A DNA stretch of 64,000 bases from Acidobacteriota bacterium (lineage in GTDB: Bacteria; Acidobacteriota; UBA6911; RPQK01; JAJDTT01). Of the stretch, positions 43,516 through 64,000 are shown piece by piece (position 1 is the first letter of the stretch; each line of letters begins with the position of its first letter). The notes under the pieces are model-generated. The model did not search any database and was not told the origin of the DNA. It worked only from the letters and a program-made list of their open reading frames with translations. The translations under genes and the position numbers were made by a program. The DNA is taken from the NCBI GenBank assembly GCA_965263035.1, contig OZ253580.1, positions 5,600,001-5,664,000 of the forward strand, in the 5' to 3' direction.

Positions 43516-43549
43516 TATCTCACGATCGTCCGAGTTCTTGCGAAAGATA
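43516..43549. other. candidate 13-8-13 recombination site upstream of recombinase 1
   Basis: TATCTCACGATCG-TCCGAGTT-CTTGCGAAAGATA; homologous site at 47289-47322. Confidence 0.6.
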
Positions 43550-43567
43550 CAGATAGAGGAACCACAC

Positions 43568-44560
43568 ATGGACGACAAATTCCTAGAGGACCTGGAACGG
43601 ACAACACTGGCCGAAAATGGACAACTGGACTGGCGATTGGAGCTTCACGGCATGGCCAAGAACACCCGCATCAACTACATGAGTAGGCTCGGCTTTTTCG
43701 ACAAGTACATGAGAAAACAGTGGCCCGGATACCCGCCGGAAGCTCCCAGCGACAAAATGTTGGCCCATTTTTTGATCATGGAATTCATCCGGGGTCTCGC
43801 CGCCTCCGGGCTAAAGGCTTCCGTGAACGCCGTGAACTGGCGAGCCACTGTTCTGGACCATGTCAAGCCCGCCGGAGCACGGACCCGGCGGAACCTGAAG
43901 AGACTTCGGGCATTATCCGGCCGGGAAGGAAGAGGACGTGGACAGGCTCCGTCTCTGACGTTAGATCAGGTCCACAACCTGATCCAGACGACGATCGAGG
44001 CTCGCGATTCCTGGTCTTTCCGGGATGCCGCGCTGATTTCGACCTGCTACTACGGAATGCTCAGAATCTCGGAAGCTGTGTCCCTGGATCGGGACGACGT
44101 GACATTCCTCGATGACGGGAGGGCTCGACTGTTCATACGCCAACGCAAAAACGATCAAGAGGCCAAGGGCTCCAAGATCACCTTGCCCGAAGACGGAGCC
44201 GAACTGCTCCGCGCCTGGCTCGACTCCGTAGGGATCACGTCCGGTCCCCTGTTCCGGGGCGTCCGGCCTGCTCGGTCCGGGCCGAACATCGGAGACTCTA
44301 ACTTGAGCAGAGAACAGGCCCAAAGGATCGTCCAAGGCCGCGCCAAGGACGCCAAGCTGGGACATATCACCACGCACTCGCTGAGACGGAGCCACGCCAG
44401 ACACTTGAAGGAAGCCGGCGCATCCCTGGTCGAAATCCAGCACGCTGGAGGCTGGCGGTCTACGGGAATGCCCGCGCTGTATTCCGGGCATGACGAAGCA
44501 CAAGGCGACGTGATGCAAAAGTTTTACCCGGTCAGGCCCAGGCTCCGGCGGGTGAAGTAG
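43568..44560 (+). CDS. Cre-like tyrosine recombinase 1
   Basis: Catalytic R-K-H-R-W-Y in GMLRISE, RKND, HSLRR, GGW and PALY. Confidence 0.9.
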   Translation: MDDKFLEDLERTTLAENGQLDWRLELHGMAKNTRINYMSRLGFFDKYMRKQWPGYPPEAPSDKMLAHFLIMEFIRGLAASGLKASVNAVNWRATVLDHVKPAGARTRRNLKRLRALSGREGRGRGQAPSLTLDQVHNLIQTTIEARDSWSFRDAALISTCYYGMLRISEAVSLDRDDVTFLDDGRARLFIRQRKNDQEAKGSKITLPEDGAELLRAWLDSVGITSGPLFRGVRPARSGPNIGDSNLSREQAQRIVQGRAKDAKLGHITTHSLRRSHARHLKEAGASLVEIQHAGGWRSTGMPALYSGHDEAQGDVMQKFYPVRPRLRRVK

Positions 44561-44840
44561 CCGCCATTCGGCCCAGGCTGGCCGCTCTCGGAAAAGGAAG
44601 GTAAAGGTAGGGCGAAGGCCGCTCAGGAGCCGCCTGGGCCTCCTCACTCCCCCTCCGGCGGCTGCTATCGCCGTGCTCCCGATTCAGAGCAGATCGCTGA
44701 TCCTGACACACTTTCCAACATCTCAAAAGGTTTATTGCCCGGCCTGCTGATTCCTCGTTCTCTTCGAGCCATGTCAACTGTACTTCCAGTGATAGCTCCA
44801 TCTGTACGCTCTCCTGAGTCGATTTCCGCCGCGTAAGGGA

Positions 44841-46925
44841 TCAGGACGGACTCCGCCCCCATTCGAGGCCTTGGTGCCGATACCCCGCAAGGTACTTGGC
44901 CACTAGGTCCAGGACGTCATCGAAATCCCTCGGTTGAGTGGATTTCAGCTTTTCGATCCTGCCTCGCAAAATATCCTCATCGCCATACACGTCAACCAAC
45001 TCATCCCACTCCATACGAAAAGAACGGTGAACGATCCTTCCGGCGGCCTTCCGTGTCAACGTACGCGCTGACTCAAGCAGAGCCCGGGTCACGCGGGGCG
45101 AATCCGGGACTTCGAGAGGCGGTTCATCGGGACCAGACTCTTGTTTTATAGAGACGAACGTCCGGAGGAGACATTTTTCCTTGGCCAGAGATTCGGCTGG
45201 CGCAGATCGAACTTCCTCTCGCCAGATTCTTTCGAATTGCTGTGCCGCGCGCTCCGAGACGAGCTCGTGTCCTATGTTTTTTTGGTGTCCGACCAACATG
45301 ATCAGTTCCCACTTGGCCGACAACTGTTCGATCTGGGACAGGATGCATCGAACAGCATCCTCTATTCGGTCAGGGCTTTCGAGCTTTCGCACCAGCCGAT
45401 AGACTACTCTGCGGACGGCGTGGCGAGGTTCGAGGTCGAAAAACCCTCGCTGGAGATCAGGCATCTCGGGCAGGAGATTGAGGAGTACGATGCTTCCTGG
45501 TACGACGTGCTCCGGGCTGAACTGATCCTCGTACACTTCAAGGCCGGCAATGACATCCTGGCGCCTGTCAGCGGGCAAGATTCGCAGGTAATTGTCGAAG
45601 GCTTCGCGGTCCGCCATATGGCCCCATGCTTGTTCCGCTGCGGTAGATGCCTGGGAACCTTTATTGGGGACTCGTTCCAAGTACAGACGCATAAAATCTT
45701 CATCCGCCACGCGTCTCTCCTGAAGCCACGCGTCTTTAAAATCAGCGCCGTGGTTGAGGCCGCCAACATGCTGCTGGGCTGCGGGGAACAAGTGGAAGAT
45801 GAGTTGTCGGGCGACCCCTTTGTGGTCCGGTGCCGCCGTCTCGATCAGTTCGTTGATCTGATTTTCTCGGGACGATGGATCTTCGAGAGCACTCCTGGTC
45901 GAGGTCGTGGTGAGGCTGGGTATCGATTTGTGCAAGGCAGAAAACACACCCGGGAGAGACATGCGAATGGCTTCGAGGGCGAGAACATCCACCAGGTTGA
46001 CTCGGCCGTTGAGGGCTTGCACAGTACCGCGAATTGCAATGGCATAGCGACGAACATGCCTGATGTTTCTTATAGGGGGCCGGACGACGTCGTGAAACAC
46101 GTCAGGCCAGCGTTCCTCGTCGAATGGACCGGCATTTTCTATCCCCGAAAGCGCGCCGTCGATCGCGTGGGTAATCTGGCTGATCATCACCTCTTCCGGA
46201 ATCTCGGGGAGATCGATATCCCACTGTAGAATTTTCTCAAGATAGTCTCGTCCGCGGATCCCCGTCGATTCAGTCAGTGCCTTTTCCACCCGCTCCCGGT
46301 CGAATGCCGTGATGTAGATGACGTTTGGAAAATTCGCAGTCAGCCGGACGAGCTTGAATACCGCTCGGATTTCCGGGGTCGTCAGGCGGTCAATGTCATC
46401 GACGACGACGACGAGTGGCGTCCCGAGAGCAGTAAGGGCCTTCTTGACCTTGTCCCTGCGCTCGGCGATTCCCTCCTTCCTGAGATCGGGTAGATTTACA
46501 AGAAGTTTCATCGCCAGTCTCACCCGGTCAATCCATGGCCCAGCAACAGGTAGCCACCCCCACCTCATCCCGGAGAAGCTCTCTCCATAGCGGGTCAAAC
46601 TCTTACCCAACTCATAAAAACGACGACGGTCACGGCCTCTAAGCTGCGCCGAGAGTTCAACGAAGAAGGACTCGACGAGTTGTTCGGTGCCGCTAAACAT
46701 CCACGGGTTGAAGTCGAGGATCTCGATTCCCGCTTTTTTCAGGTGCGGACGAACCAGATTGACGAAGGACGTTTTTCCTGAACCCCAGGGCCCCAAGGCA
46801 CCGGTCACGAGACCCTCCGAGGCGTCGAGCGAGAGAAGCTGTTCGGAAAACGATTCCGCTAGCTTTGCCCTGCCGAGGACATCCTCCTCGGGATTCCGAA
46901 TAGGGGTATCCATCCTAATTGTCAT
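44841..46925 (-). CDS. KAP family P-loop NTPase
   Basis: DVLGR, GPWGSGKT, FNPW, VVVVDDIDRL and YLEKI motifs. Confidence 0.9.
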   Translation of the reverse strand: MTIRMDTPIRNPEEDVLGRAKLAESFSEQLLSLDASEGLVTGALGPWGSGKTSFVNLVRPHLKKAGIEILDFNPWMFSGTEQLVESFFVELSAQLRGRDRRRFYELGKSLTRYGESFSGMRWGWLPVAGPWIDRVRLAMKLLVNLPDLRKEGIAERRDKVKKALTALGTPLVVVVDDIDRLTTPEIRAVFKLVRLTANFPNVIYITAFDRERVEKALTESTGIRGRDYLEKILQWDIDLPEIPEEVMISQITHAIDGALSGIENAGPFDEERWPDVFHDVVRPPIRNIRHVRRYAIAIRGTVQALNGRVNLVDVLALEAIRMSLPGVFSALHKSIPSLTTTSTRSALEDPSSRENQINELIETAAPDHKGVARQLIFHLFPAAQQHVGGLNHGADFKDAWLQERRVADEDFMRLYLERVPNKGSQASTAAEQAWGHMADREAFDNYLRILPADRRQDVIAGLEVYEDQFSPEHVVPGSIVLLNLLPEMPDLQRGFFDLEPRHAVRRVVYRLVRKLESPDRIEDAVRCILSQIEQLSAKWELIMLVGHQKNIGHELVSERAAQQFERIWREEVRSAPAESLAKEKCLLRTFVSIKQESGPDEPPLEVPDSPRVTRALLESARTLTRKAAGRIVHRSFRMEWDELVDVYGDEDILRGRIEKLKSTQPRDFDDVLDLVAKYLAGYRHQGLEWGRSPS

Positions 46926-46950
46926 GGTCCTTTAACCACCACCTCGCGGG

Positions 46951-47288: not shown

Positions 47289-47322
47289 CATCTATCGATC
47301 GTGTTCGTTCTTGCGAAAGAGA
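47289..47322. other. candidate 13-8-13 recombination site upstream of recombinase 2
   Basis: CATCTATCGATCG-TGTTCGTT-CTTGCGAAAGAGA; same distance to the ATG as site 1. Confidence 0.6.
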
Positions 47323-47340
47323 AGAGTAGGAGGTATCAAC

Positions 47341-48339
47341 ATGAGCGGAAGACTAAACCTGGATGATTTGGAACGAACCGTGCTGGCTGGGGACGAGGAC
47401 CGGGACTGGAGGCGGAAGCTGCGAGCCCGGCCAGCGGGGACGCAGAGAGCCTATGGATCACGCCTGCTCCGGTTCGACCGCTGGATGGCCAAACGCTTCG
47501 CCGACGTAGACCCGGAGCGACCCAAAGACCAGCACGTCGCTCTTCACCTGATCCGGGAGTTCAAACGAGGACGAACCGGCGCGGTCCTGCGACTGAGCAC
47601 CACCGCCTTGCGTTGGAGGGCCAACGCGCTGGACCAGCCTTCGCCAATCGGACGCAAGACGCGGGAAACCCTGGATGTGCTGCTCCGGGAATTGGCCCGA
47701 GTCGGACGGACCAAACGTAGCGCTCCCAGCTTGTCCGAATCGGAAATGGACCGGCTGTTCCGGCAAGCCGAATCCGCCGTCGTCCCGTGGGGACTCCGAG
47801 ACGGTGCGCTAATAGCCGCCTGCTTTTACGGGCTGCTCAGGGCCTCCGAAGCCCTGGCCCTCGATGTCCAGGACGTCCGGTTCCAGCTCAACGGGGAAGC
47901 CACGCTCAGAATCCGCCGGAGCAAAACCGACCAGCATGGGGAGGGCCGGAACGTCACCCTGATTCCCGCCGCTGCGGATCGGCTCCGGCGCTGGACCGAC
48001 TTCGTCGAAATCCAGACCGGCCCCGTCTTTCGCTCTATCCACCGGCTGCCCTTCGGGGATTATCAGATTCGCAGCAAGCGCCTGTCCTTCAACACCTTCC
48101 ACGGACTGCTCGCATATCGCGCCAAACAAGCCGGGCTCGGGAGGGTGAGTACGCACACTTTGAGAAGGAGCGGCGCCAGGGCGCTCATGGAGCGGGGTGC
48201 TACCGTAGCCGAGTTCCAGTTGGCCGGAGGCTGGACAAGCGGCTTGATGGCGGTCTACTACGCCTGAAACCCGGAGGCTCAGGGTGCCGTCGTGCGAAAG
48301 TATTTCTCGGGAGCCCCAAAGCTCAAAGCCGTCAAGTAG
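47341..48339 (+). pseudogene. Cre-like tyrosine recombinase 2 with a premature TGA (48265-48267) after the catalytic Tyr
   Basis: LLRASE, SKTD, HTLRR, GGW and VYY motifs; the read-through tail NPEAQGAVVRKYFSGAPKLKAVK aligns with the C-terminus of recombinase 1. Confidence 0.8.
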
Positions 48340-48543: not shown

Positions 48544-49169
48544 CTGGCCCGCCAGGACCGCCGCCTTCTCGACTTCCATGCCGCCGTTGACCAGAGACTG
48601 GAACGCCCGCGCCCTCCCCGTCAGATCGGAGGCAAACAGGGGCGCCAGGTCCAGCGTCACCGGCATCTCCAGCTTGGCCCGGAACTCCGCCTCCAGCCGG
48701 TTGACCAGGGGCTGGAGCGCCGCGTGAGCCCAGTATCGGAAACTCTCCCGCCTTGCGCTCCCGTCGGACCGATCCCCGAGCATGGCCGAGGGGATTCCGC
48801 AAGCCGAAAGTACGGACTGTTTTGCGTCTTCCCGGAGCGTACACAGTGCCTCCGGTGGAGCCGGTCAAGCCTGGACGGTATCCAGTCTTTCTGAGGTGCC
48901 GCATCCCGGCCCTCACCGAAGCCTACCGCCGTCGTCTCCACTAGGGCCAGCCCTCCGGCCAGCGTCTTGAGGTCGGCTTTCATGGGCGCCAGAGGGTCGT
49001 CCGCTTCGTCCTGTTCGGCATGGGGAACGGGGAGCAAGAATCCGGTAGGAGTTGAGGACTCATTTGCTAGCCAACTTTCCAAGGCTTTGTCCAGGGACCC
49101 GGTTTGGTCCGCAACCTCCAGGGGTCCGCAGCCCTTCCACGGGACGCAGGGATCGATGGCCCACCGCAT
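48544..49169 (-). pseudogene. phage portal-like protein remnant (frameshifted, 5'-truncated)
   Basis: ACGIPSAMLG...RESFRYWAHAALQPLVNRLEAEFRAKL resembles an HK97-type portal C-terminus; frame change near 48870. Confidence 0.6.
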
Positions 49170-49476
49170 CTAGGCGGGAGAGCATACCCAGGTTTATTCG
49201 GGCCTTCTTACTGTGGAAAATAGCTCGTCCTAACCGCGCCCTGAATGGACCGCACAACTCACCTACAAACAAGGCTTGGAGCTGTTGGGACTTGTCCCGG
49301 AGAGGGCAATCGGCTACTATTAGATGTTCCTAGGTGAGCCCGCCGAGTGCTTGAACACCCGGCAGGCTCTATGCTCACTCGTCCTGCGTCGGAGGAAGAG
49401 CCAGCCTAATTGGTATTCTACCTGAATCCCTCCGCTGCCTGAATCCGGCGCAGGACAATCTCCTGGAAGACTTGCC

Positions 49477-50346
49477 ATGTCTGATGCACCCAAAGACGAC
49501 ACCAGACGTAATCTGACCATTATTGGAATCATTCTGGCTGTACTAATCCTTATGATTTCGCTAGTTGTCCTGATCGATCCCGAACTGGGGGCAGCTTTCA
49601 TGCAGGTTCAGAAGGACCAGCATGAAGACATGATCGAAACGGAGAGTTCACAGGAATCCCTGAACGCCTTAGATCTTCGACAGAATCCGGTTCCGGAATC
49701 TAGCCACTCCGAGTCCGACCCATCTGTCGTCCGGGTCAGCAACGAAGTGCCCGACGACAATGGGACCGTCGGCGTATGGTGGAGGGACGCCGGTGCCCTT
49801 TCCGGAAAACTTCGGATCAAGCAGGTGGGAGCCAAGCTGACGGCAAACTGGACCTTCATGAACGGGCAAACCATGACTCGGAAACTCGTAGAGTCCAAGG
49901 AAGCCGGACTGAGGCGGTTCGACATCCCGGAGAGCGCACCCCACAACGAGTATTACATCCTCCAAGAGGATGGGTGGTTGCGCCTGGGTGGTCCCAACGG
50001 CGTGTTTCAAGTAATCCCACCCGACTCGTTGAACATCCCTAAAAGCGCCCCTCCAAACCCGCAGGCATACTCGCCTGCAAGAGGGCACTCCTCTTGTGAC
50101 GGATTGAAGCACCTTGATCCCTGGAACGGGGAGAGTCCCGAATTGAACCGGGCAGTGCAGCTCCGCCTGAACGATCCCAATAGCTTGGAGGTGTTGGAAA
50201 CGAAGATCGGCGAGAACGAGTCCGGGCGTCACCTCATCACGATGGAGTTCACGGCCCGAACCCCATTTGGGGGAAGAAAAAGAATGCGGGCTGTGGGCTG
50301 GCTGGATCACGACACCAAGGATGTGGAATTGACCTTCTTGAGATAG
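49477..50346 (+). CDS. membrane-anchored hypothetical protein
   Basis: N-terminal TM helix; C-terminal LNDPNS...FTARTPFGG motif. Confidence 0.7.
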   Translation: MSDAPKDDTRRNLTIIGIILAVLILMISLVVLIDPELGAAFMQVQKDQHEDMIETESSQESLNALDLRQNPVPESSHSESDPSVVRVSNEVPDDNGTVGVWWRDAGALSGKLRIKQVGAKLTANWTFMNGQTMTRKLVESKEAGLRRFDIPESAPHNEYYILQEDGWLRLGGPNGVFQVIPPDSLNIPKSAPPNPQAYSPARGHSSCDGLKHLDPWNGESPELNRAVQLRLNDPNSLEVLETKIGENESGRHLITMEFTARTPFGGRKRMRAVGWLDHDTKDVELTFLR

Positions 50347-50369: not shown

Positions 50370-50987
50370 TTGGGCAAGACTGATATTAAGATCCACCGCC
50401 TCCGCGCTTGGCCCGTGTCGCTTGATTTTCCATTGACGGTACCAATGGGACATTACCCAAGCGAAATCGAAGACGCGCTGCATGACCTGCTCTCCCAACC
50501 AGCCTACTTCCATCGTGTAACTCGTTTTCAAGGTCCTCGCGCTCGCACCACTGGAGAAACCACCGGACGACCCAGGCATAGGGCTGCCGGGTCTCGGCGT
50601 TGGATTATCCGGGCAGAGAACAACTCGTCGGCCGCAACGCAGGCGGTGGCGCCAGCCCGTTCCAGGACCGGCGGGGGAACCTCCGCAGGCAGGTCCCCGC
50701 GGGCGGCCTGTGAGCGGGTCCGGGAACTGGTGAGTTAGCACGATGACCAGGTGGTGCTGTTGATTTGGGGCGGCCGGATTCTCGGCTGGTCCCTGCGCCG
50801 CATTGCGGCGGCCCTGGAAGGGTCGATCGCGCCTCCCGGTCGCCGCGCCGGGTACACAGCCGGCCATTGGACAGCGGCTACGGTCCAGCGGATCTGCCGC
50901 CGGCATGGGATCGCAACGGATCGTCCGGCCGATCCGCCTCGTGTTTTGCTCGACTCTCTGAGACGGGGTTCCGGTCCCCGCCGGTAG
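50370..50987 (+). pseudogene. remnant with a recombinase-type HTH DNA-binding segment, in-frame TAG at 50736-50738
   Basis: Two same-frame ORFs; GWSLRRIAAAL...WTAATVQRI motif. Confidence 0.45.
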
Positions 50988-51047: not shown

Positions 51048-51965
51048 CTATCTCAGGTTGAACTGGACTTCGATGGTCGCAAAGACATCCACCGGTCTCC
51101 CATTGAGCCTTCCGGGCCGAAAGCGCCAGTTGGTCTCGATCTCCCGGATGGCCTGCTCTTCCAATCCGTGGCCCAATCCCTGAATGACCTTGAAGCTGTC
51201 GACGTTGCCGTCCTTTCGGATGATGGCCTGGAGCCAGACCACACCCTGAACCTTGGCGTCCTGGGCGGCCTGGGTGTAACTGGGAGTCGTCTGCACTATG
51301 GGGACGGGGTTGGTAACTCCGTCCCCAGATCGATAGACGTGGCCGCCGTCTCCAGCCTCAGATCCCGAGCCCTCGCCCAGACTCTTACCTCGGCCGATGC
51401 GCTCCCAAAGCTCACTGGAGAGTTTCTGTGCCTCGTCGACTTGCTTGGCAGACATTTCTGATCTGAGCAAGGTTTTTTGGCGGGCGGCGAGGGACTGTCG
51501 CTGGGCGGCGGCGAGATTCGACCAGGCATAGGCTTTCACGTAGTCTTTCGGCACACCCTCGCCATTAGCGTACATGACTCCAAGGTCGAATTGGGCGTCG
51601 ACGTGACCCTGCTCGGCGGCCATCCGATACCACTTCACCGCTTCCTGATCATTCTCCGGCACGTCTCGACCACGAGAGTACATTGTTCCAAGAGTGAATT
51701 GGGCGGCGGCGTGACCCTGTTCGGCAGCCATCCGATACCATCTCACCGCTTCCCGATCATTCTCCGGCACGCCGTCACCATCATCGTATCTGAGGCCTAG
51801 GTTGAATTGAGCGTTGGCGTCGCCTTGCTCCGCCGCCGTTTGTAGAGGCCCGATGTCCTGGGCTTCGGCAGGTTCGGATTGAAACGCAGCCAGAATGACA
51901 AGGGAAAGGAGCCGGCGCGGGAGCCTAGCTATTCGGGGGTCTTGGGAGGTCATGGGACGAAGCAT
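51048..51965 (-). CDS. Sel1-repeat / TonB C-terminal fusion protein
   Basis: Three AAEQG..AQF.LG..Y Sel1 repeats; PSYT...VQGVV...WRFRPG TonB-C domain. Confidence 0.9.
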   Translation of the reverse strand: MLRPMTSQDPRIARLPRRLLSLVILAAFQSEPAEAQDIGPLQTAAEQGDANAQFNLGLRYDDGDGVPENDREAVRWYRMAAEQGHAAAQFTLGTMYSRGRDVPENDQEAVKWYRMAAEQGHVDAQFDLGVMYANGEGVPKDYVKAYAWSNLAAAQRQSLAARQKTLLRSEMSAKQVDEAQKLSSELWERIGRGKSLGEGSGSEAGDGGHVYRSGDGVTNPVPIVQTTPSYTQAAQDAKVQGVVWLQAIIRKDGNVDSFKVIQGLGHGLEEQAIREIETNWRFRPGRLNGRPVDVFATIEVQFNLR

Positions 51966-52186: not shown

Positions 52187-52287
52187 GATCTCGCGCCTCC
52201 ACCAGCGCCTCGCGGCGGAGCGGGGAACTCTCAAGCGCGTAGCGCTGCCCTTCTGTGGATGTCCGACCAACATGGGAGACTGACGAC

Positions 52288-53265
52288 ATGAACCAGAGTT
52301 TCGATGTGGATGGATTCATCCGCCGTATTGGTGAACGGCTCGTCGACGAATTCAAGGACGCCAAAGCAGGCACGACTCCATCGACCGTAGGGGCGGCGGC
52401 AGAGCAACCGGTGAGGGATCAACTGGCACAGGTCTTGCCTAGAGGTATAGCAGTGGGAGAGGGTTTCGTGATCGACAGCTATGGCGCGACGAGTCGTCAG
52501 CAGGATGTAGTCCTTTACGAGCGGGATATTTGTCCCGTGTTTTCGATAAACAAAACTCCGCAGACGACGTATTACCCGTGCGAAGGGGTCATCGGTGTAG
52601 GCGAAGTCAAGAGTTCGCTGGATCGGGACTCCCTGCGTGACGCATTCCAAAAGGTCGCATCCGTAAAGCGCCTCCGACGGCACGTCGTACATCACCTAAT
52701 TCCTAACCCCAAGACCGGGGAACTATTCCCCATGAATCGCAACTACCTGACGCATGGGGAGTCGATACTTCGGATGGATGAAGCATCGGACCGCAAGGAA
52801 AGGCTACAGATATTCGGGTTCGTGTTGGCGGGCGCATCACGGGTAAAACAGGAAACGCTGGTAATGACCTTCCGAGAACTTGCTGCGCAGATGGGAGACG
52901 GCTTGTCACCTAACCTGTTAGCGACATTGGATGGTCACGCCATTAATTGGGGCAACATCGGAAAGCGAGAGCGGAGAGAAATACGTCAGTCTAAAGATGG
53001 CACGTACAAGTTGACCGTATACAAGGACGGTCCCCAGAGCTGGCAGGCATCGTGGTCGGCAGAGACTGCGGCGCATGTTGGTGCATCCGAAAACGCCGAT
53101 GCGTTCCGCTTGCTGGTGCGCTGGATAAGGCAGGGCGCTGAGTTGGGTAGAACCAGCGACATAAGGTCGTTTGACCGCTACTTTGAGGTACGATCCTCTG
53201 GCGAATCGAATGCCATGTGGTGCATTCCGAAGCTGAGGACACGGCGAAACCGCATCAAGACATGA
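52288..53265 (+). CDS. DUF6602/NucC-like PD-(D/E)XK nuclease
   Basis: VLPRGIAVGEGFVIDSYG..SRQQDVVLYE...GEVKS motif. Confidence 0.75.
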   Translation: MNQSFDVDGFIRRIGERLVDEFKDAKAGTTPSTVGAAAEQPVRDQLAQVLPRGIAVGEGFVIDSYGATSRQQDVVLYERDICPVFSINKTPQTTYYPCEGVIGVGEVKSSLDRDSLRDAFQKVASVKRLRRHVVHHLIPNPKTGELFPMNRNYLTHGESILRMDEASDRKERLQIFGFVLAGASRVKQETLVMTFRELAAQMGDGLSPNLLATLDGHAINWGNIGKRERREIRQSKDGTYKLTVYKDGPQSWQASWSAETAAHVGASENADAFRLLVRWIRQGAELGRTSDIRSFDRYFEVRSSGESNAMWCIPKLRTRRNRIKT

Positions 53266-53433: not shown

Positions 53434-53609
53434 TTGTCCCAGCTGCTCCCCTGCTGTGGCTGATGAGCAAGATCCTCCACGATTCCTACCAGGGAAGACC
53501 TCCCAGAGCTTTTTGTTAGACTGCCGAGAAAATGCACCCCTCGGAACTCGGAGCTCAAGGCCAGAGACAGATCTTGGTGTCCCCTTTGGGGAACCCACGA
53601 ACCCCCGCA

Positions 53610-53909: not shown

Positions 53910-53938
53910 TCTGCTTGAGGCGGTAAAGGAAGCTTCAA

Positions 53939-55858: not shown

Positions 55859-55985
55859 CGACATTTGGAGAGTCAATCGTGGAGGAATCCGCCTTGGTCT
55901 GGGTTGCTCCTATCTATACTTACTTGTCCGCGAGTTCTCCCGCTCTCCCGGCTCCCTTTTCAGCCCTATACCCCCTCGCTGTGGT

Positions 55986-56966
55986 TCAGACGGAAATCCT
56001 CTCCACCAAGTTCCCGCTAACGCGCCGCCGCCGGTCGTAGATCTGGGTGGTGCGGGGGTGGGCGTGACCGGCCAGGTACTGGACGTCTTCGAGCGGCACG
56101 TTCTGGCTGAGCAGATCCGTGACCACCAGGACGCGGAACGAGTGGGGCGAGAGGATCTTCGGCAGCCCGGCCGCCTTGAGCCGGCGCTTGAGCACCAGCT
56201 GCACGGCCAGAGGCGACATCGCCCGATCGGTGAGCGGACTGGAGCGGCGCTGCCCGGCCCGATACAGTGGTGAGGCCTGGGGCGCATCCGTGAGCCCGGC
56301 CCCTTCGAGGTAGGCCGCGATCCATTCGTCGAGATCATGGCGCACCGGGATCTCCCGCGACTTGCCCCCTTTCTCCGCAAACTGCAGCGACCGGTGGTTG
56401 CCGTTGTCGCGCAGGTCCTGGATCCGGAGCCGGCTGATGGCCCCGACCCGGGCGCCGGTGTAGATGAGCGTCCCGAGGACCGCCCGATCCCGAAGCCCGT
56501 ACACGTCGCGGGTTTTGATGGCGGCGAGGAGACGGCGCGCCTGGTCGACACTCACCTCGGGCGTGCGGCCCTCCCCGAAGGGATGGCGCACCCCCCGGAC
56601 CGACTGGAACGGATTCAAGACCGCCGCGTGCCGGGCCACCAGGACGTCGAAGAAGTGGCGCAGCGCCGCGAGGGCCTGGTTCTGGGTGGGGGCGGCCCCG
56701 GGGAGCTCGTCCAGGAACCGGCCGGCCAGGCCGGGGGTCACCTGGTGCAGCTCCAGCCCTTGGTCCTCGCACCACGCGAGGAACCGACTCACCTGGTGGG
56801 CGTAGGCGGTCCGGGTGTGGGGATTCGAGATTCGCGCAGAGAAGAACTCGTCCGCGGCGAAGCAGGCCGCCTTGCCGGCTCTCACGAGAATGGCCGGGAA
56901 GTCCCCTTGGAGGTCATTTGTTGCCGGTGAATCTCCGGTTCTGAGGGCGAGGTCGGTGTCGCTCAT
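55986..56966 (-). CDS. Xer-like tyrosine recombinase 3
   Basis: TGARVG, EKGGK, HSFR, AGH and TTQIY motifs. Confidence 0.9.
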   Translation of the reverse strand: MSDTDLALRTGDSPATNDLQGDFPAILVRAGKAACFAADEFFSARISNPHTRTAYAHQVSRFLAWCEDQGLELHQVTPGLAGRFLDELPGAAPTQNQALAALRHFFDVLVARHAAVLNPFQSVRGVRHPFGEGRTPEVSVDQARRLLAAIKTRDVYGLRDRAVLGTLIYTGARVGAISRLRIQDLRDNGNHRSLQFAEKGGKSREIPVRHDLDEWIAAYLEGAGLTDAPQASPLYRAGQRRSSPLTDRAMSPLAVQLVLKRRLKAAGLPKILSPHSFRVLVVTDLLSQNVPLEDVQYLAGHAHPRTTQIYDRRRRVSGNLVERISV

Positions 56967-56970: not shown

Positions 56971-56998
56971 GCTACGTATAATATACTTTATCGTAATC
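56971..56998. other. dif-like site directly upstream of recombinase 3
   Basis: GCTACGTATAA-TATACT-TTATCGTAATC; AT-rich within GC-rich DNA. Confidence 0.65.
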
Positions 56999-57193
56999 TG
57001 ATCTACGCCCCGGACTCCTGGTTTTCCCCGTCGGCCGGGGGGCGATCGAGGCGTTGCGCGGCGAACGCTCGGTGCAGGAGATCGCGTTGTCGGCATTAGA
57101 GCCGGCGTTCGCGGCCCTTCGCGGCACGGCCTCCCGAAGTGGGGCGCGAACGGACCGTCATCGGCATCAGGTCGCGCGGTCGCACCCTCTCCG

Positions 57194-59482
57194 CTACGAA
57201 GCAGGAGTCGCCAGAGCTTCCCAGAACGACCGGATCTTCGGGTCGGTGTCGGGACGCCCGACGAGACCCGCCATGATTTGCTTCGGCAGGAACCGTGGGC
57301 GCAGGAACTTTTTCCGCTGTCCCCTCGTGGCGCGTTCTTCCAGTCTCATGATGCCGTGTTCAACCAGCTGGCGCTGGAGCCCATCCCATCGGGGGTCCGA
57401 GAAGAGACTCGATAACGTGTCGTCCTGTAGGCACACGAGGGCGGTTCGGCGGTACACTCGCATCAGGCGCTCCATCAAGTTCATCTCTGCCTCCGGCACC
57501 GCGGGACCCTTCGGTCCGAAATCGTCCGTGATCGGAGCCCCACACGACTGTAGCGTGTCCGTGATGAACGACGGGTCGTAGTTCGTATCCGTCGTATCGT
57601 CATTGTCGACCACACGAATGCCTGTCACATCATCCATGCCGAGTCCGGTCAACTCCAGTCGCGTCGACTCTAGGCTGACCCTAGGTTCGTACAGCCGTAC
57701 CCCGTTCGCCTCGCACGCCACGAACCGAGTCGACGTGAGGTCAGTGCGCCGCATGACTACGTCGATCAACGAACATTGACTCAAGGTGACGTTCTTGAGA
57801 TCGCTGCCCGGGAATACGACGGACTGAATCGTGCAGCCTTGGATGCCATCTGAATCCCGGCAGCCCTGTTCCTCCCGCAGCAACGCCATAGCGAGGAGCC
57901 CGGCATTCTCCCGCACCTGCGCCGTCCGGCGGCTCTCCTGCTCGGCCGCCTTCGAGAGACGGTCCAGCCGTTCCTGCAATCGGTTGCCGTCGGCCGGCGC
58001 ATCCGACGCAGCCGTCTCCTGCGCTACCCGGTCGGCAACTTCCTCGGGTAAAGCAGAACGACTCAGGATGACGCGTAGATTCGCGTCCGCGGCGAACTGG
58101 GCCGTAATTGTTCTGGCGAGAAAGAAGAAGAAGAAGAGCTCGTGTTCGAAGGCGATTCCGCCGCGCTCCGACGGTGCGTCGCCCCGGCCGAGAAAGGCCA
58201 TCGCCGGTAGCCGCTCTACAATCACCTGCTTTGCGGTGTCCGGCAGCCCTGCGTCATGGACGAAGTATTCCGCAACGAAACGAATCGAGCCGACATCGAG
58301 TCCGCGGGTTTCCTGGTTCCACATCTCCTCCGCGAGTTCCTGCATCAAGTTGCCGAACTGGTCTGTGGTCATGAGAGGTCGCGAGTTTCGATCCAACAGC
58401 TTGTCGTTCAGTTCTCTCGACGAGTACTCTCGCACGAGCGTGCGCAGCAGATCGTCGCCACTGGAGAACGAGGGGTCATGCTGCAACATCTGGACGACCC
58501 GCGTGAAGAACAGCGGCTTCAAGGCCAGAGAGGGATGGTCCTTGAAGGTGTGCGTCACGCGTTTGCAAAACGTCTCTGCCTCCGACGAGGACCAGCCCTT
58601 CTTCTCGATCCGTTTCAGGTAGTCCTGTCGATCTTCGTCAGACCACTCCTGGATTTGAACCGGCACGTGGGACCACGCCTGATCGCCGGTGGTCGAAGCA
58701 CGCCCAGCCCTTTCGAGAAACTCCTCCTCGTAGTACGTGGACCGGGCCGACACGAGAATCTGACCGTCTCCATGGAGCTGTTCGAGGAATCCCGCGAGCG
58801 AGCTGAAGGCGTCGTCGTAGCCACTGACGCCGAGTAGCTCGTCGAATCCGTCGATGACCGGCACGAGGACTCCGAGCTGTGCCAGGACCGCGACGGAATG
58901 ATAGGTGAGACCGACCTTCAGGTCCTGTAGCTCAGTCGCCAGCGCCTCGCTCAACCGTGCGAGCGATCGCCCCTGAGCGTTCACGTAGAGCAGCAGCCTA
59001 GAAGTGCGTCCGCTCAGATAGGCTTCAGCCTGCCGCCGCACGAGTTCCCGCAGGACAAAGGTCTTGCCGGCGCCTGGCCCACCGGTGACCATCACCACTC
59101 GCGTTGTGTCGGCTTCCTTACCGAGCAGGTCGGTGAGGACTTCGATGGCTGCCCCGGAACGGTGCGGGGATTCTGCCCGCGTTGGAATGAACAGCATGGG
59201 TTTCTGCGCCGATTGAATCATCTGCGCGACGTGACGCAGATCGGCCATGCCGGGTCCGGATGCGAAGGTGCGGTACAGAACGCGGGATGCACCGCTCACC
59301 GTGACCCACACGCCCTGGTCTCGCGAGACGGAGAACGTAGCCTCTTGCGGTTCGCCGCGCATGGTCCAGCTGGCGCGGAACCTGCGGTCGGACCCATCGA
59401 CATCGACCCTTGTGCCCGGGTCTCCGAACGATGCCAGATCGTGCCTGATGCGTTCGTTCCAGTACGCAAAATAGTCATTCAT
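57194..59482 (-). CDS. NACHT/STAND NTPase with pentapeptide-like repeats
   Basis: GGPGAGKT, VIDGFDEL and FEHE motifs; VFPGSDLKNVTLSQCSL repeats. Confidence 0.8.
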   Translation of the reverse strand: MNDYFAYWNERIRHDLASFGDPGTRVDVDGSDRRFRASWTMRGEPQEATFSVSRDQGVWVTVSGASRVLYRTFASGPGMADLRHVAQMIQSAQKPMLFIPTRAESPHRSGAAIEVLTDLLGKEADTTRVVMVTGGPGAGKTFVLRELVRRQAEAYLSGRTSRLLLYVNAQGRSLARLSEALATELQDLKVGLTYHSVAVLAQLGVLVPVIDGFDELLGVSGYDDAFSSLAGFLEQLHGDGQILVSARSTYYEEEFLERAGRASTTGDQAWSHVPVQIQEWSDEDRQDYLKRIEKKGWSSSEAETFCKRVTHTFKDHPSLALKPLFFTRVVQMLQHDPSFSSGDDLLRTLVREYSSRELNDKLLDRNSRPLMTTDQFGNLMQELAEEMWNQETRGLDVGSIRFVAEYFVHDAGLPDTAKQVIVERLPAMAFLGRGDAPSERGGIAFEHELFFFFFLARTITAQFAADANLRVILSRSALPEEVADRVAQETAASDAPADGNRLQERLDRLSKAAEQESRRTAQVRENAGLLAMALLREEQGCRDSDGIQGCTIQSVVFPGSDLKNVTLSQCSLIDVVMRRTDLTSTRFVACEANGVRLYEPRVSLESTRLELTGLGMDDVTGIRVVDNDDTTDTNYDPSFITDTLQSCGAPITDDFGPKGPAVPEAEMNLMERLMRVYRRTALVCLQDDTLSSLFSDPRWDGLQRQLVEHGIMRLEERATRGQRKKFLRPRFLPKQIMAGLVGRPDTDPKIRSFWEALATPAS

Positions 59483-60057
59483 GAGGACGTCTGCTCCAGG
59501 CACTGGATACGTACTCCACAATCGCTCAGGGCCCGATCGTTGAGCCCTTCGCCGGCTGCGCGCCGCCGCATCCAGGCGGCACCCGCCGGGTCGGCTGCAT
59601 GGGCCGAGAGAGCGGCGGGTAGCAGGTCATCGTCGTCGCTTACGATTCCGACTCTCGACTGGCCGAGCGTAGCCGCGAAGACGGCGTCGTGGCCGAGCAT
59701 GGCGTCGACCATCTTCTGCCGTCTAGGTTTGGCTTGGAGCCTTACCGTACCTCGCAGCTCGATGTCTGAAAATTGGAGCATCGTTATCGCGAGTGTCGGC
59801 CGAAGGAGCAGTCCTTGCCGTCGGCCGCGGAGCGCTGGAAGCAACGGCAGCAACAATAGTGCGGACGGGCTGTGAACGCCCTGTTCATCGATCCAGCCGC
59901 CGTACAGACGCACATCCAGTTCACGCAGGCCCGGGAACGCAGCATGCGACGCGCGAGCGATCAGATCGAGGAGTTCCGCCGTACGGATCTCGACCTCGTG
60001 CTCGAACCTGATGCGCGGGCAGAGGTTGTCGTAGTCGACGAGTGCAAGGCCCTGCAT
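59479..60057 (-). CDS. NYN domain (PIN-like) nuclease
   Basis: VDYDN, QKMVD and VSDDDDLLPA motifs; ATGA overlap with the NACHT gene. Confidence 0.8.
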   Translation of the reverse strand: MQGLALVDYDNLCPRIRFEHEVEIRTAELLDLIARASHAAFPGLRELDVRLYGGWIDEQGVHSPSALLLLPLLPALRGRRQGLLLRPTLAITMLQFSDIELRGTVRLQAKPRRQKMVDAMLGHDAVFAATLGQSRVGIVSDDDDLLPAALSAHAADPAGAAWMRRRAAGEGLNDRALSDCGVRIQCLEQTSS

Positions 60058-60205
60058 TCTCTATCGTATTCCAAGCAAGGGTTAGTCGACGAATTTCCGT
60101 AAGTTATTCATAAAAAGTGGTTTGCTTTAAGTGCTCAGGTCTCGATTCCCACTTTCGAGCGGGAATCTGCGGGACCACCGAAGCCGTTCATCTCAAATTT
60201 GAACA

Positions 60206-60445
60206 TCAGCCCTTCACCCGCCGCGGGTCGTTGCCCGGAGCCACCGTGTCCTTGTCGCGGATCTTGCCGTCGACGCCCTTTGTCGTCAGCTCTCCCCCGC
60301 CCTGCTTCTTCAGCATCTCGCGGGCGGTGGCTTGGGCCTCTTCCTGCGTGCGATGGACGCTTCCCGCGCGCGAGGCATTGTTTCGCTTGTTCTCCCAAGT
60401 CCCATCGGGGCGACGGGACACTGTACGATCTTGCGGCTTGCTCAT
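60206..60445 (-). CDS. DUF2188 family protein
   Basis: TQEEAQATAR...GVDGKIRDKDT..NDP motif. Confidence 0.85.
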   Translation of the reverse strand: MSKPQDRTVSRRPDGTWENKRNNASRAGSVHRTQEEAQATAREMLKKQGGGELTTKGVDGKIRDKDTVAPGNDPRRVKG

Positions 60446-60697
60446 GCTGCCCCTTCCTGCTGCTCTAAGAGGGTATGGAGGCAATCCCATATATACTATC
60501 GTAGGTGACCGACAGGACTAGACCCCAAATAAGCGTGATCCAAGGGGGGCCTGTTAAAGAGTACCGGAAAAGCTCATCCTAAGTTTCCCCCGCACAGGCA
60601 GGGATCTTTTGGACAGTGTCCGTTAACTGAAATTTTCGGAAGCCTATCGAGGCACGGTCTCGTTTCGAGGAATGTCTCCGAGGTTACGAACAACGAA

Positions 60698-60761
60698 GCC
60701 CGTAGAAGGGCCTGAGATCGATGATCTCCCTTGAGCCAAGGGGTAGGGGGCACAGGCCTTT
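60698..60761 (+). repeat. island hairpin motif, copy B
   Basis: 35 of 50 positions identical to copy A by manual alignment. Confidence 0.6.
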
Positions 60762-60870
60762 ACGCGCTATCGCAGTCCTGCATCGGTTCCAGCAAGGGAT
60801 CGGGGTCCTGACAATCGCACCCCGGTACATCTTGGCCCTTTTCGCCTCTAAAGAATCCCGGGACCGGCGT

Positions 60871-61875
60871 TCAGGCTCCATACCGGAGGCGAGCCACGGC
60901 ACCCCGACCGGCCAGTTGTGCACGGGCATAGTGGCCTGGCATCTGGGGAGACGACCACCGGCCGTCGATCTGCATCTCGACGATCGTGGCCCCATTTGCG
61001 ACGAGACTCTGAGCCGATCCCACCCGGAGGCTGTGGCCAGAAACCCGGCCCTCGATATCGGCGGCGGCGGCGCGGCGTTTCAACATTAGCCGGAGCCCGG
61101 AGACCGAGAGTGGCTGATTCCCGCAGACGTCCCCTCGGCGTACCCGGCGAAACAGGGGCCCGGTGGAGAATCCGGCCCTATCGAGCCAAACTCGGATTCT
61201 TTTCACGGTGCGGGGCCCGAGATATTGCACGGCTCCCTTGCCCTCCGGGTCGGACTTCGAGAATCGGATGGTGAGACGCCCGGAGCCGTCCGGCTCAAAA
61301 ATGACGTCCTCGACCACCAGGGCGCATAGTTCCGAGACCCGGAGCATGGCATCGCTCATAACGGAGATGATCGCGGCGTCTCGCAATCCGGCCAGAGAGT
61401 GATTCCCATTGGCGGCGAGGGCGGCCATAACGTCCGCATCCCTCCATTGAACGCCTTTCACTTGCCCGCGTCCCCGTCCCTTCCCCTTGCGGCGGAGCCC
61501 GGCGAGGACGGCTTGACTTACGGGGCCTACCGGGGACGGCTGGCCGGTGGTCTTGGATTGGAACCGGACGGCGGCCACCAACTGCCCGGCAACAGCGGGC
61601 GATTTCCCCACATCGTGCAAGCTGGTGAGGTATTCGGCAAGCGTGTCATCCGTGAGGGGCTGCCCGTCCAGGTAGTCGTAGAGACGTTGCAGCTGCCCCT
61701 GGTAGGCGGCTCGGGTGTTGGCCGAGATACTGGCAGCCGCCAACTCGCGGGCCCCGGCGCTGATCCGGGCCAGTGGTCCGACTCCGGAAGACATTGAGGG
61801 GGACACTTCGAGGGCGTTCTTATTGGGCGTCGTCGTCTTTTCCTCGGTGACATTGCCAGTAGAATAACTCACCAT
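60871..61875 (-). CDS. Cre-like tyrosine recombinase 4 (start may be 61794)
   Basis: MLRVSE, SKSD, SGHSLRVGSA, GRW and PGHY motifs. Confidence 0.9.
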   Translation of the reverse strand: MVSYSTGNVTEEKTTTPNKNALEVSPSMSSGVGPLARISAGARELAAASISANTRAAYQGQLQRLYDYLDGQPLTDDTLAEYLTSLHDVGKSPAVAGQLVAAVRFQSKTTGQPSPVGPVSQAVLAGLRRKGKGRGRGQVKGVQWRDADVMAALAANGNHSLAGLRDAAIISVMSDAMLRVSELCALVVEDVIFEPDGSGRLTIRFSKSDPEGKGAVQYLGPRTVKRIRVWLDRAGFSTGPLFRRVRRGDVCGNQPLSVSGLRLMLKRRAAAADIEGRVSGHSLRVGSAQSLVANGATIVEMQIDGRWSSPQMPGHYARAQLAGRGAVARLRYGA

Positions 61876-61897
61876 AAGTGTAATTATAGAGAGTTAT
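61864..61897. other. loxP-like site (13-8-13)
   Basis: ATAACTCACCATA-AGTGTAAT-TATAGAGAGTTAT at the 5' end of a Cre-like gene. Confidence 0.8.
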
Positions 61898-62225
61898 TAT
61901 GGGGTCTGTCAAGCGCTTCAAAACATGCTCATCAGGGTTGAGGAACCGGGATGAAGGGAGGATTGCGCAACTATATCCGATGGAAATGAACCAGGAACGG
62001 GGTGCTCCACCCTCCATTTCTGTGCGGCCAATTCAAAAAAAGATGAACTAGCCGCAATAGTGGGAAGCGGCCCCACTCCATGGAACCCTTTTGCCACCTG
62101 ACAACGACGACTCCCAGAGCAAGGTTCGACAAATCGTTGTCCCCGTGCCAAGACCAGGAACCATCCCGCCGGTATACCCCTGCCATCCTGGGTTTCCGGG
62201 GGATTTGATATATCCTGAGTGTTCA

Positions 62226-64000
62226 ATGACCAACAACGATCTGAACTGGATTGCCAACTACATCTGGGGTATCGCCGACGACGTCCTGCGCGACCTCTAC
62301 GTTCGCGGCAAGTACCGCGACGTCATTCTTCCCATGACCGTTCTCCGCCGGCTGGATGTGGTGTTGGAGGACACCAAGCAAGCGGTACTGGACATGAAAG
62401 CCACTCTCGACGCGGTGGGTGTAGTCGAGCAAGATTCGTCCCTGCGGCAGGCGGCGGAGCAGGATTTTTACAACACCTCGAAGTTCACCTTGCGCGACTT
62501 GAGGTCCCGCACCAACCGTCAGCAGCTCACGGCTGACTTTGAGGCCTACCTCGACGGCTTTTCGCCCAACGTCCAGGACATACTCGAAAACTTCGAGTTC
62601 CGAAACCAAATTCCGCGGTTGTCCAAGGCGGATGCCTTAGGCACGCTCATCGAGAAACTCACTTCGCCTGATATCAATCTGAGTCCGGACCCGGTCATGA
62701 ACGCCGATGGTTCCGTGCGGTACCCCGGCCTCGACAATCATGGGATGGGTTCGATCTTTGAAGAGCTGGTTCGCCGCTTCAACGAGGAGAACAATGAGGA
62801 GGCGGGTGAACACTGGACACCACGTGACGCCGTGACTCTGATGGCGAAGCTTCTCTTCCTACCCATCGCTGACGAAATCAGATCTGGAACTTACCTGCTC
62901 TACGATGGCGCCTGCGGGACCGGCGGCATGCTGACAGTGGCCGAGGAAACACTGTCGCAGCTCGCCGCCGAGGGCGGCAAGCAGGTTTCCACGCATCTCT
63001 ATGGCCAGGAGATCAACGCCGAAACCTACGCCATCTGCAAGGCCGACCTGCTGCTGAAAGGCGAAGGCTCGGCGGCCGACAATATCGTGGGCGGACCGGA
63101 GCACTCGACGCTCGCCAACGACGCATTCCCGTCCAATGAGTTCGACTTCATGCTTTCCAATCCGCCCTACGGCAAGAGCTGGAAGAGTGACTTGGCACGC
63201 ATGGGCGGCAAGAAGGATATGCGCGACCCGCGTTTCGTGATCGAGCATGCGGGCGATCCCGAATATTCGCTGGTCACGCGGTCCAGCGACGGTCAGATGC
63301 TGTTTCTCGCCAACAAGCTCTCCAAGATGAAGCAGCACACGCCGCTCGGCAGCCGCATCGCCGAGGTCCACAACGGCAGCTCCCTTTTCACCGGAGATGC
63401 CGGACAGGGTGAGAGCAACATCCGCCGCTGGATCATCGAGAACGATTGGTTGGAGGCGATGGTCGCTCTGCCTCTCAACATGTTCTACAACACCGGCATC
63501 GCCACCTATGTCTGGGTGCTCACGAACCGAAAACCCGATCACCGGAAGGGCAAGGTGCAGCTAATCGACGCTACGAAGAGATACCAGCCTTTGCGGAAAA
63601 ACCTGGGAAAGAAGAACTGCGAACTCGGTGAAGAGGACATTGCTTGGATCTGCGAGACGTTCCTCGGGTTCGAGGAGAATGACCAGAGCAAGATCTTCGA
63701 CAATGCCGCCTTCGGCTACTGGAAAGTGACGGTGGAAAGGCCGTTGCGGATCGAAGGTATTGACCCCAGCCGTGCATACAAGGCTGCGGAGATCAGAAGA
63801 CTGAAAGCAAGTGGCGAGCGGAGTGAGACGGCACCGGCCGTGATCAAAAAGATTCACAAGCGGGGGACCGAACCCAACCCCCTTCACGGCCTATTCAGAA
63901 CTACCATCAATGGGCGATCTGCCGTGGTGGAGTACGAACCGGACACCGATCTGCGCGACACGGAGCAGATCCCTCTGCTGGAGGAGGGAGGAATTGACGG
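62226..64000 (+). CDS. hsdM: type I restriction-modification M subunit, 3'-partial
   Basis: MTNNDLNWIANYIWGIADDVLRD, GEHWTPR, YDGACGTGGML and NPPY motifs; runs off the window end. Confidence 0.95.
   Translation, partial: MTNNDLNWIANYIWGIADDVLRDLYVRGKYRDVILPMTVLRRLDVVLEDTKQAVLDMKATLDAVGVVEQDSSLRQAAEQDFYNTSKFTLRDLRSRTNRQQLTADFEAYLDGFSPNVQDILENFEFRNQIPRLSKADALGTLIEKLTSPDINLSPDPVMNADGSVRYPGLDNHGMGSIFEELVRRFNEENNEEAGEHWTPRDAVTLMAKLLFLPIADEIRSGTYLLYDGACGTGGMLTVAEETLSQLAAEGGKQVSTHLYGQEINAETYAICKADLLLKGEGSAADNIVGGPEHSTLANDAFPSNEFDFMLSNPPYGKSWKSDLARMGGKKDMRDPRFVIEHAGDPEYSLVTRSSDGQMLFLANKLSKMKQHTPLGSRIAEVHNGSSLFTGDAGQGESNIRRWIIENDWLEAMVALPLNMFYNTGIATYVWVLTNRKPDHRKGKVQLIDATKRYQPLRKNLGKKNCELGEEDIAWICETFLGFEENDQSKIFDNAAFGYWKVTVERPLRIEGIDPSRAYKAAEIRRLKASGERSETAPAVIKKIHKRGTEPNPLHGLFRTTINGRSAVVEYEPDTDLRDTEQIPLLEEGGID

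Follow-up and report, generated by a model that had tools for sequence, protein, structure and literature searches.

Cre/loxP of phage P1 pairs a simple tyrosine recombinase with a short palindromic site that has an asymmetric spacer of 6 to 8 bp, and in Acinetobacter plasmids pairs of sites delimit the pdif modules, which rely on the XerCD of the host. XerS is described as genetically linked to its dif-like motif (PMC2731167), and tyrosine recombinases of the short format, a core-binding plus a catalytic domain (CB+CAT), have been termed "simple" (PMC8138268). Phage-inducible chromosomal islands that form capsids (cfPICIs) are reported to carry capsid, head-tail adaptor/connector, and terL genes without tail and holin genes, to have a median length of 14 kb, and potentially to place accessory defense genes between the attachment site (att) and the integrase (PMC10085698). 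Arrays of the staphylococcal chromosome cassette (SCC) type are described as carrying defense genes as well (PMC11470126), and further related sources are PMC5357621 and 10.64898/2026.01.13.699239. Here we analyze a window of 64,000 nucleotides, positions 5600001-5664000 of one 6.198-Mb contig (~63% G+C) of an Acidobacteriota bacterium (genome label G000), in which four tyrosine recombinase genes, Int1 to Int4, lie among predicted defense genes beside ilvD. A sequence-only reading of the window had taken this region for a hotspot of minimal Cre/lox-type units that capture and shuffle defense genes; its observations are partly confirmed, and its interpretation as a gene-capture hotspot is not supported. 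We consider the region likely to be a composite, decayed, phage- or satellite-derived integrative defense island at the 5' end of ilvD. Window-equivalent numbers above 64000 carry the same numbering past the window end.

The borders of the island were located by comparison with relatives. A match to ilvD was present in 29 of 31 related genomes (G000 included), among them seven of the eight same-genus relatives at 94 to 95% identity; the eighth, G008, is a fragmented assembly with no ilvD match and was left out of the junction comparison. None of our conclusions draws on the unpublished genome G016. In the junction alignment, all seven congeners have the counterpart of window-equivalent position 72289 directly at the ilvD start codon, and their sequence past the start codon matches 72289-72394 onward at 86 to 93% identity and is then collinear. 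Nothing of 43498-72268 is found at ilvD in these genomes, for which 40 kb (G001 to G005 and G007) or 23 kb (G006) of island-side sequence was compared, the exceptions being short Int3-like matches at least ~38 kb from ilvD in G002, G003, and G007. In G000, the segment is flanked by a 20-bp direct repeat; the two copies agree at 18 positions, the left copy being identical to the empty site and the right copy having two mismatches. Because ilvD abuts 72289 in every congener compared and the repeat flanks the segment, we conclude that 43498-72268 (28.8 kb) is a single insertion bounded by attL and attR, which only G000 carries among the genomes examined. The left 20.5 kb of the island, 43498-64000, lies in the window, and the feature passes the window end to window-equivalent 72288, with attR. 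The locus thus combines an empty site in relatives, matching end repeats, and an integrase gene beside one end, as integrative islands do. The sequence-only reading had named the ilvD-adjacent locus of relatives as a place to check its idea; that site is empty in seven of seven congeners, and the comparison revealed a single all-inclusive insertion and no differently filled shared locus.

The positions of the mismatches suggest a crossover within CGAATGGCAT, because, in the right copy of the repeat, both lie in its left half. The heptamer GTCTCAT recurs 31 bp inside attL, and at attR it is part of a perfect inverted pair, ATGAGAC-N7-GTCTCAT. In three public metagenome runs, drawn from three studies, there are contigs with their first base at 43468. 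This position lies 30 bases short of 43498 and would hint at a graph branch at the junction if k=31 is assumed for their assembly. Contig joints in four metagenome runs (e.g., 56999 to 60609 and 53877 to 56023) had flanks of only 21 to 41 letters and were not used. Just past the ilvD stop codon, a ~155-bp repeat at 41654-41819 has copies of 92 to 97% identity at 2065244 and 5364409.

All four recombinases match PF00589, are 308 to 334 residues long, and keep the R..HxxR..Y catalytic residues, which bears out the cluster described in the sequence-only reading at a span of 18.3 kb; since the genome holds 27 PF00589 matches in 6.2 Mb, four in this interval is far above chance. Identity to Int1 is 42% for Int2, 33% for Int4, and 23% for Int3. 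Int1 starts 70 bp inside the left repeat and, from this position, is likely the integrase of the island. Int2 stops one residue past the catalytic tyrosine, and its similarity to Int1 goes on beyond a TGA. The two genes share a 31-nt upstream motif (81% identity between the copies), and the pattern ATCTnnCGATCG-N8-CTTGCGAAAGA occurs upstream of Int1, Int2, and a third integrase, p5358k, i.e., in three of ten family members compared; it probably serves as a promoter/operator or as arm-type sites. The Int1 family has ~10 copies in G000. Among 31 genomes searched, it was found at E <= 1e-25 in G000 and all eight same-genus relatives; the 22 genomes from other genera had no such match. An Int1 query against genome contigs gave two distant, uninformative loci out of 131 candidate stretches.

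The relatives of Int1 within G000 suggest that the island belongs to a family of phage-like elements. The p5358k integrase bounds one end of a second G000-specific insertion, element Y (5348768-5358660; 9.9 kb), the flanks of which are adjacent in all five congeners searched and overlap there by 4 to 7 bp. Direct repeats were not found in Y by BLAST alone, and its end repeat of ~6 bp, about CTTCAA, was resolved through the relatives. The layout of Y is that of the island, with an Int1-family integrase and the upstream motif at one end and a tRNA-Leu(UAA) gene at the other. Y encodes a portal protein, an HK97-gp10-like connector, a large terminase (PHROG 1e-28), and a major head protein, besides a weak match to a small terminase, and homologues of these head and packaging genes adjoin Int1-family integrases at six more places (17 kb, 362 kb, and 1.79, 4.88, 5.10, and 5.14 Mb). 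The island itself has a portal fragment only. This remnant is 55 to 63% identical to residues 144-354 of the Y portal and follows Int2 as the portal follows the integrase in Y; the sequence-only reading was right that no intact phage genes are visible and had missed this frameshifted piece. Portal remnants and island-type tRNA-Leu genes also occur in mosaic regions near 2.07-2.10 Mb and 2.90-2.92 Mb, which hold blocks 94 to 96% identical to parts of the island. Y-type elements may be satellites or defective prophages, or may resemble gene transfer agents.

The tRNA-Leu(UAA) gene at the distal end lies inside the insertion and is the only Rfam match in the island. There are five tRNA-Leu(UAA) genes in G000, four of them of the island type with a conserved flank, and the copy in Y shares the 45-bp outer flank of the island copy, ending CCCCTATAATRG. 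No match into this flank was found in the other eight genomes of the genus, so that G000 has four island-borne extra tRNA-Leu(UAA) genes absent from eight congeners. TTA accounts for 17 of 709 leucine codons in sixteen island genes versus 3 of 462 in eight nearby core ORFs (open reading frames), a modest difference. A tRNA-targeted island was considered and rejected, as the tRNA is within the insertion and the island has no repeat derived from tRNA-Leu. Elsewhere in the window, ARAGORN reported a tRNA-like gene with an undetermined two-base anticodon (tt) at 13131-13216.

We propose that the island was inserted by site-specific recombination, presumably catalyzed by Int1, into the first codons of ilvD, which would have left the 20-bp repeat and restored the ilvD 5' end. 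It would be a member of a family of small integrative elements, phage-like and spread over the genome, that follow a common plan: an Int1-family recombinase terminates one side, head and packaging genes make up the interior, and tRNA-Leu(UAA) closes the opposite side in some members. In this copy the morphogenesis genes would have decayed to the portal fragment, and antiphage genes now fill the space, namely those for the PifA-like NTPase and the NucC-like nuclease, a membrane protein that is PIN-like, NACHT and NYN-like proteins, and a type I restriction-modification system. Int2 together with the portal piece, the unit and the fragment of the Int3 type, and Int4 are probably leftovers or passengers of elements that fused with the island or nested in it.

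Int3 and Int4 are intact yet partnerless recombinase-plus-site modules whose current role is uncertain. The sequence-only reading had assigned a palindromic site to the 5' end of each of the four genes and had called all of them minimal Cre/lox-type units. The palindromic site is borne out for Int3 and Int4, each of which has its own adjacent dif-like 11-6-11 site, but not for Int1 and Int2, which have their common nonpalindromic motif in this place and are integrases of the phage-like element family. Int3 scores 116 and 115 bits with the XerC and XerD models against cut-offs of 335 and 330, Int1, Int2, and Int4 score lower, and no island recombinase reaches the cut-off of the XerC, XerD, XerS, or XerA model. 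The Int4 site contains the -10 box in its left arm and the ATG in its right arm, and the Int3 and Int4 sites, each lying over the promoter or start codon of its gene, probably serve both as operator and as recombination site. Only 21 ATAA-N6-TTAT patterns, at scattered sites, are present in the 6.2-Mb genome; five are at Int3-family genes or fragments, one is at Int4, and one resembles the chromosomal dif. This last, ACGTCGCATAA-TGAATA-TTATGTAAACT at 5875243-5875270 of G000, looks like a canonical dif, and XerC/D are likely encoded at 948 kb and 4.479 Mb, where the genome has its best PF00589 matches.

The pairing of site and recombinase is seen across the Int3 family, which has 10 matches in G000 and 1 to 4 in seven of the eight same-genus relatives. 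We fetched 30 Int3-family loci from G000 and its relatives, 24 of which retain the N terminus, and in 18 of these 24 a TAA-N6-TTA 11-6-11 site lies no more than 45 nt from the start; the other 6 failed this strict filter, and two of them show a near variant by eye. The arms vary in complementary pairs (CGATAA/TTATCG, CCATAA/TTATGG, GCATAA/TTATGC, GAATAA/TTATTC, TGATAA/TTATCA, and CGGTAA/TTACCG), and these six compensatory variants show a protein-bound inverted repeat that coevolves with its recombinase. The Int3 unit is a multicopy module of ~1.05 kb, in which homology starts at about -33 to -130 upstream and ends with the stop codon.

These features invite a different reading, in which Int3/Int4-type units are docking modules that take in circular DNA with a matching site and stack defense genes in an integron-like manner. 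The sites are real and coevolve with their proteins, the Int3 unit is sharply bounded with unrelated flanks at each of 7 copies, and defense genes are present on the 3' side of every island recombinase. We nonetheless regard such a platform as unlikely. In 43400-72400, no second Int3- or Int4-type site was found at up to 6 or 7 mismatches (shuffled sequence gave 0 to 1 hits); therefore no cargo block is bracketed by sites, and no internal module is excisable as a cassette at present. The homology of Int3 units breaks 20 to 100 bp beyond the site and not at its spacer. Accessory genes do adjoin six other Int3 copies (an AAA_15/AAA_21 ATPase, DUF3800, LRR and ankyrin proteins, and transposases), but these neighbors are of mixed kinds and not consistently defense genes. 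Paralogues of the PifA-like and hsdMSR genes elsewhere in the genome end at gene borders, not at sites, with no recombinase near, and together with the lack of partner sites they run counter to the capture and shuffling of defense genes that had been proposed from the letters of the window.

The Int4 orthologue in G002 (84% identical) bears on the docking reading from both sides. Homology between G000 and G002 sets in precisely where the right arm, TTATGG, has its first base. The G002 gene sits at a block edge, with 17 nt between it and the start codon of a gene that is conserved; Int1 has such an edge position here, which is in keeping with the island reading. However, the edge of homology coincides with the start codon of Int4, and conservation of coding sequence alone could explain it; moreover, the hybrid spacer in G002 is unlike the G000 spacer, and the cargo beside the G002 orthologue is not conserved, with no defense genes identified there. 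In the regions 146315-150940 of G000 and 1101666-1105886 of G002, this conserved block precedes the Int4 orthologue in G002 and a different tyrosine recombinase (PF00589, 150485-150940) in G000, and the two may share an insertion point at the 5' end of a gene. If docking did occur, such modules would have spread through the accessory genome of this bacterial family and recruited circular DNA, defense operons included, and stacks of them could arise without integron-type attC sites or host Xer. That Int3/Int4-type units form a distinct class of minimal, self-regulating docking modules, in which the own coevolving site is also the promoter and start region, seems to us just as improbable. A literature search, limited in extent, returned no paper describing multicopy Xer-like genes with promoter-overlapping sites, and one may exist.

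A seemingly stand-alone dif-like site at 6028480 was examined as a breakpoint and rejected: its left side aligns weakly to the Int3 N terminus, i.e., it adjoins the remnant of a decayed unit, which further counts against docking. A short repeat following Int3 copy C was likewise rejected as an att site, being a dispersed repeat of ~27 copies; this sequence, GGAGAAGGGGACAGTCACCTC, is at 5548266-5548292 of G000 and in ~26 other places, with many copies in congeners. Two loci of G000 share a 2.1-kb block at 98.6% identity, the start of which is marked by dif-like sites at 2118112 and 2929662, with homology beginning inside the site; the block codes for a tyrosine recombinase of 395 residues that belongs to a different family.

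The Int3 and Int4 units could alternatively be modules for multimer resolution or excision control, inherited from circular replicating ancestors and without a role in gene gain, which we likewise think improbable. Their arrangement, with one site per recombinase directly upstream and overlapping the promoter, is that of XerS/difSL and Cre/loxP, and a DciA-like gene recurs 1.2 to 2.1 kb downstream of Int3-family genes at three loci (two in G000 and one in G003), with a variable gene between. Intact palindromes in place of hybrid sites would fit such a role too. On the other hand, we identified no replication initiator in the island, ten Int3-family matches share one chromosome, and XerC/D-like genes and a canonical-looking dif are present besides these units. 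Near-identical sites in inverted orientation would also be hazardous to the chromosome if both were active: sites A (5656971; window 56971-56998) and C (5547258) differ at 1 of 28 positions, have the common spacer AGTATA, and lie inverted ~110 kb apart, where an active recombinase could invert most of the window.

For Int4, its divergent position directly beside the hsdMSR operon raises the further idea of a phase-variation switch that shuffles hsdS specificity, as pairs of a tyrosine recombinase and a type I restriction-modification system are described in phase-variable systems (PMC6265443). We find this highly improbable. Self-comparison and repeat search of the island found one hsdS and no inverted hsdS repeats, the paralogous hsdMSR at 4.607-4.613 Mb has no PF00589 match nearby, and no hsdM lies within 1.5 kb of the Int4 orthologue in G002.

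Several observations weigh against the phage- or satellite-derived island that we favor. The part given to Int1 is deduced from its position, because its closest relative outside G000 reaches only 37% identity and an Int1-type element at ilvD was seen in no other genome. The Int1 att region has GTCTCAT repeats and no clear symmetric core around the proposed crossover, and neither repeat search nor short-word BLAST found an internal copy of the 20-bp repeat that would mark the joins of Int2, Int3, or Int4. Int3 stands out from its neighbors in GC content (0.69) and in G+C at third codon positions (GC3, 0.87), and the sites of Int3 and Int4, being intact palindromes and not hybrid att sites, fit a live module at least as well as a relic. 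In element Y, searches with Pfam and PHROGs identified no regulator, replication, or tail gene, and five of its ten ORFs have no family in either.

The remaining content of the island is listed in Table 1. PifA is a defense protein of the abortive-infection type, and bacterial NACHT proteins have antiphage roles. The cargo calls of the sequence-only reading stand for the KAP, NucC-like, NACHT, DUF2188, and hsdM genes, whereas those for a PIN-2TM protein and a NYN protein are Atlas leads only: the 639- and 192-residue proteins had no Pfam or NCBIfam hit, and a PDB sequence search gave nothing below E 0.1. The DciA/DUF721-like gene belongs to a set of at least five copies, including those at 6018238, 3961063, 3776996, and 3546734 of G000. 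Upstream of the 289-residue ORF, ~90 bp at 49332-49421 have at least 8 copies in the genome at 74 to 87% identity, some of them within 1 to 3 kb of Int3-family genes. Tandem 108-bp repeats occupy 51549-51764 inside the Sel1-repeat gene, and related arrays occur near 700 kb.

Table 1. Features of the ilvD island and its borders, in window coordinates (numbers above 64000 are window-equivalent and lie beyond the window)
Feature	Position	Strand	Remarks
ilvD (dihydroxy-acid dehydratase)	41815-43497	-	Pfam ILVD_EDD_N 9e-119, ILV_EDD_C 6e-76; core gene, first codons are the attachment site
Left direct repeat (attL core) TGTCTCATATCGAATGGCAT	43478-43497		Identical to empty site of relatives; includes ilvD start codon
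Int1 upstream motif ATCTCACGATCG-N8-TCTTGCGAAAGA	43517-43547	+	31 nt, nonpalindromic
Int1, simple tyrosine recombinase	43568-44560	+	~330 aa; PF00589 1e-20; catalytic residues kept
KAP-family P-loop NTPase, PifA-like	44841-46925	-	Pfam KAP_NTPase 5e-41; PADLOC PifA 1e-64
Second copy of Int1-type upstream motif	47290-47320	+	Repeat search, upstream comparison
Int2, tyrosine recombinase	47341-48267	+	PF00589
Frameshifted phage portal remnant	48547-49169	-	tblastn; weak Pfam Phage_portal, E 0.011
289-aa ORF, no known family	49477-50346	+	In 1.57-kb block 95.6% identical to copy at 2.900 Mb
Int3-family fragment	50528-50706	-	N-terminal coding part only; 80% identity to copy F, 2914207-2914384
Sel1-repeat/TonB_C protein	51048-51965	-	Pfam; no obvious defense gene
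DUF6602/NucC-like PD-(D/E)xK nuclease	52255-53265	+	Pfam DUF6602 2e-22; PADLOC PD_DExK 4e-30, NucC effector 2e-20
DciA/DUF721-like small protein	53532-53909	+	Pfam DciA 2e-10; multicopy
639-aa protein, PIN-like lead only	53939-55858	+	Two hydrophobic helices at C terminus; Atlas 0.97 to "PIN like domain" clusters
Int3, Xer-like simple tyrosine recombinase	55986-56966	-	PF00589 8e-23; SAM-like N domain
Int3 dif-like 11-6-11 site GATTACGATAA-AGTATA-TTATACGTAGC	56971-56998	-	Ends 5 nt before ATG
NACHT NTPase with pentapeptide repeats (NLR-like)	57194-59521	-	Pfam
192-aa protein, NYN-like lead only	59479-60057	-	Atlas 0.90 to NYN clusters
DUF2188 protein	60206-60490	-	Pfam 8e-20
Int4, simple tyrosine recombinase	60871-61875	-	Orthologue in G002
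Int4 dif-like 11-6-11 site ACTCTCTATAA-TTACAC-TTATGGTGAGT	61867-61894	-	9/11 arm pairs
Int4 sigma-70-like promoter TTGACA-18-TATAAT	61883-61912	-	12/12 matches
hsdM	62091-64208	+	Pfam; passes window end at 64000
hsdS	64205-65626		Beyond window
hsdR	66170-69178		Beyond window
IS (insertion sequence)-like remnant	69314-71156		Beyond window; one ORF matches N-terminal transposase profile
tRNA-Leu(UAA)	72126-72212	-	Inside insertion, beyond window
Right direct repeat (attR) TGTCTCATGCCGAATGGCAT	72269-72288		2 mismatches vs left copy

What appeared to be a new kind of gene-capture platform can thus be explained as a phage-derived island that would have traded capsid genes for immune genes, a proposal that is testable. 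Exact attachment sites, a reconstructable attP, and the conserved ilvD attB make an integration assay possible for little-studied simple tyrosine integrases. The Int3 family also offers a clear case of recombinase-site coevolution, with six complementary arm variants in one family and the site lying over the gene's own promoter.

Set against known systems, the island resembles an integron in combining a simple tyrosine recombinase, an adjacent site, a promoter, and accessory genes. It differs in that the integron integrase models score far below cut-off (TIGR02249 at most 63 bits against 265; NF011946 29 against 435), in agreement with the view from the window alone that no IntI-type integrase is present. 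Its cargo consists of full operons in their own orientation, and no attC-like array was found, i.e., no repeated imperfect palindromes between genes and no corresponding Rfam match. With Cre/loxP and pdif modules, Int3 and Int4 share a short palindromic site, with an asymmetric spacer of 6 to 8 bp, for a simple tyrosine recombinase; in contrast to pdif modules, there is one site only for each, and Int3 and Int4 are recombinases of the units themselves. Like XerS/difSL and XerH/difH, Int3 and Int4 have 11-6-11 sites with ATAA-N6-TTAT inner arms directly upstream of the gene; unlike XerS and XerH, the Int3 family has ten matches per genome and not one, lies in accessory regions, and scores far below the XerC, XerD, and XerS cut-offs. 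The arrangement also departs from dimer resolution by Xer/dif, in that the sites are not single copy near the terminus and coexist with the separate canonical-looking dif and XerC/D-like genes.

Like SCC-type arrays, the island sets several blocks of recombinase and antiphage cargo side by side at one site, but its recombinases are of the tyrosine type and it has two outer repeats only, whereas att is repeated between the blocks of SCC-type arrays. As had been noted before, no conjugation genes appear: no conjugation or relaxase Pfam family was found among the ORFs scanned in 43.5-72.3 kb, oriT not having been searched. Unlike phage-inducible chromosomal islands (PICIs), the island and Y have a simple CB+CAT integrase, with no AlpA-type regulator or primase-replicase among their Pfam and PHROGs hits; the island further targets the 5' end of a protein gene, has a distal tRNA-Leu(UAA), has lost nearly all morphogenesis genes, and carries three further recombinases. 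With PICI, cfPICI, and P4-like elements it shares an integrase at one end, att repeats, a strain-specific distribution, and defense genes near the integrase, and, as in cfPICIs, members of its family carry portal, major head, large terminase, and connector genes, of which the island itself has only the portal fragment.

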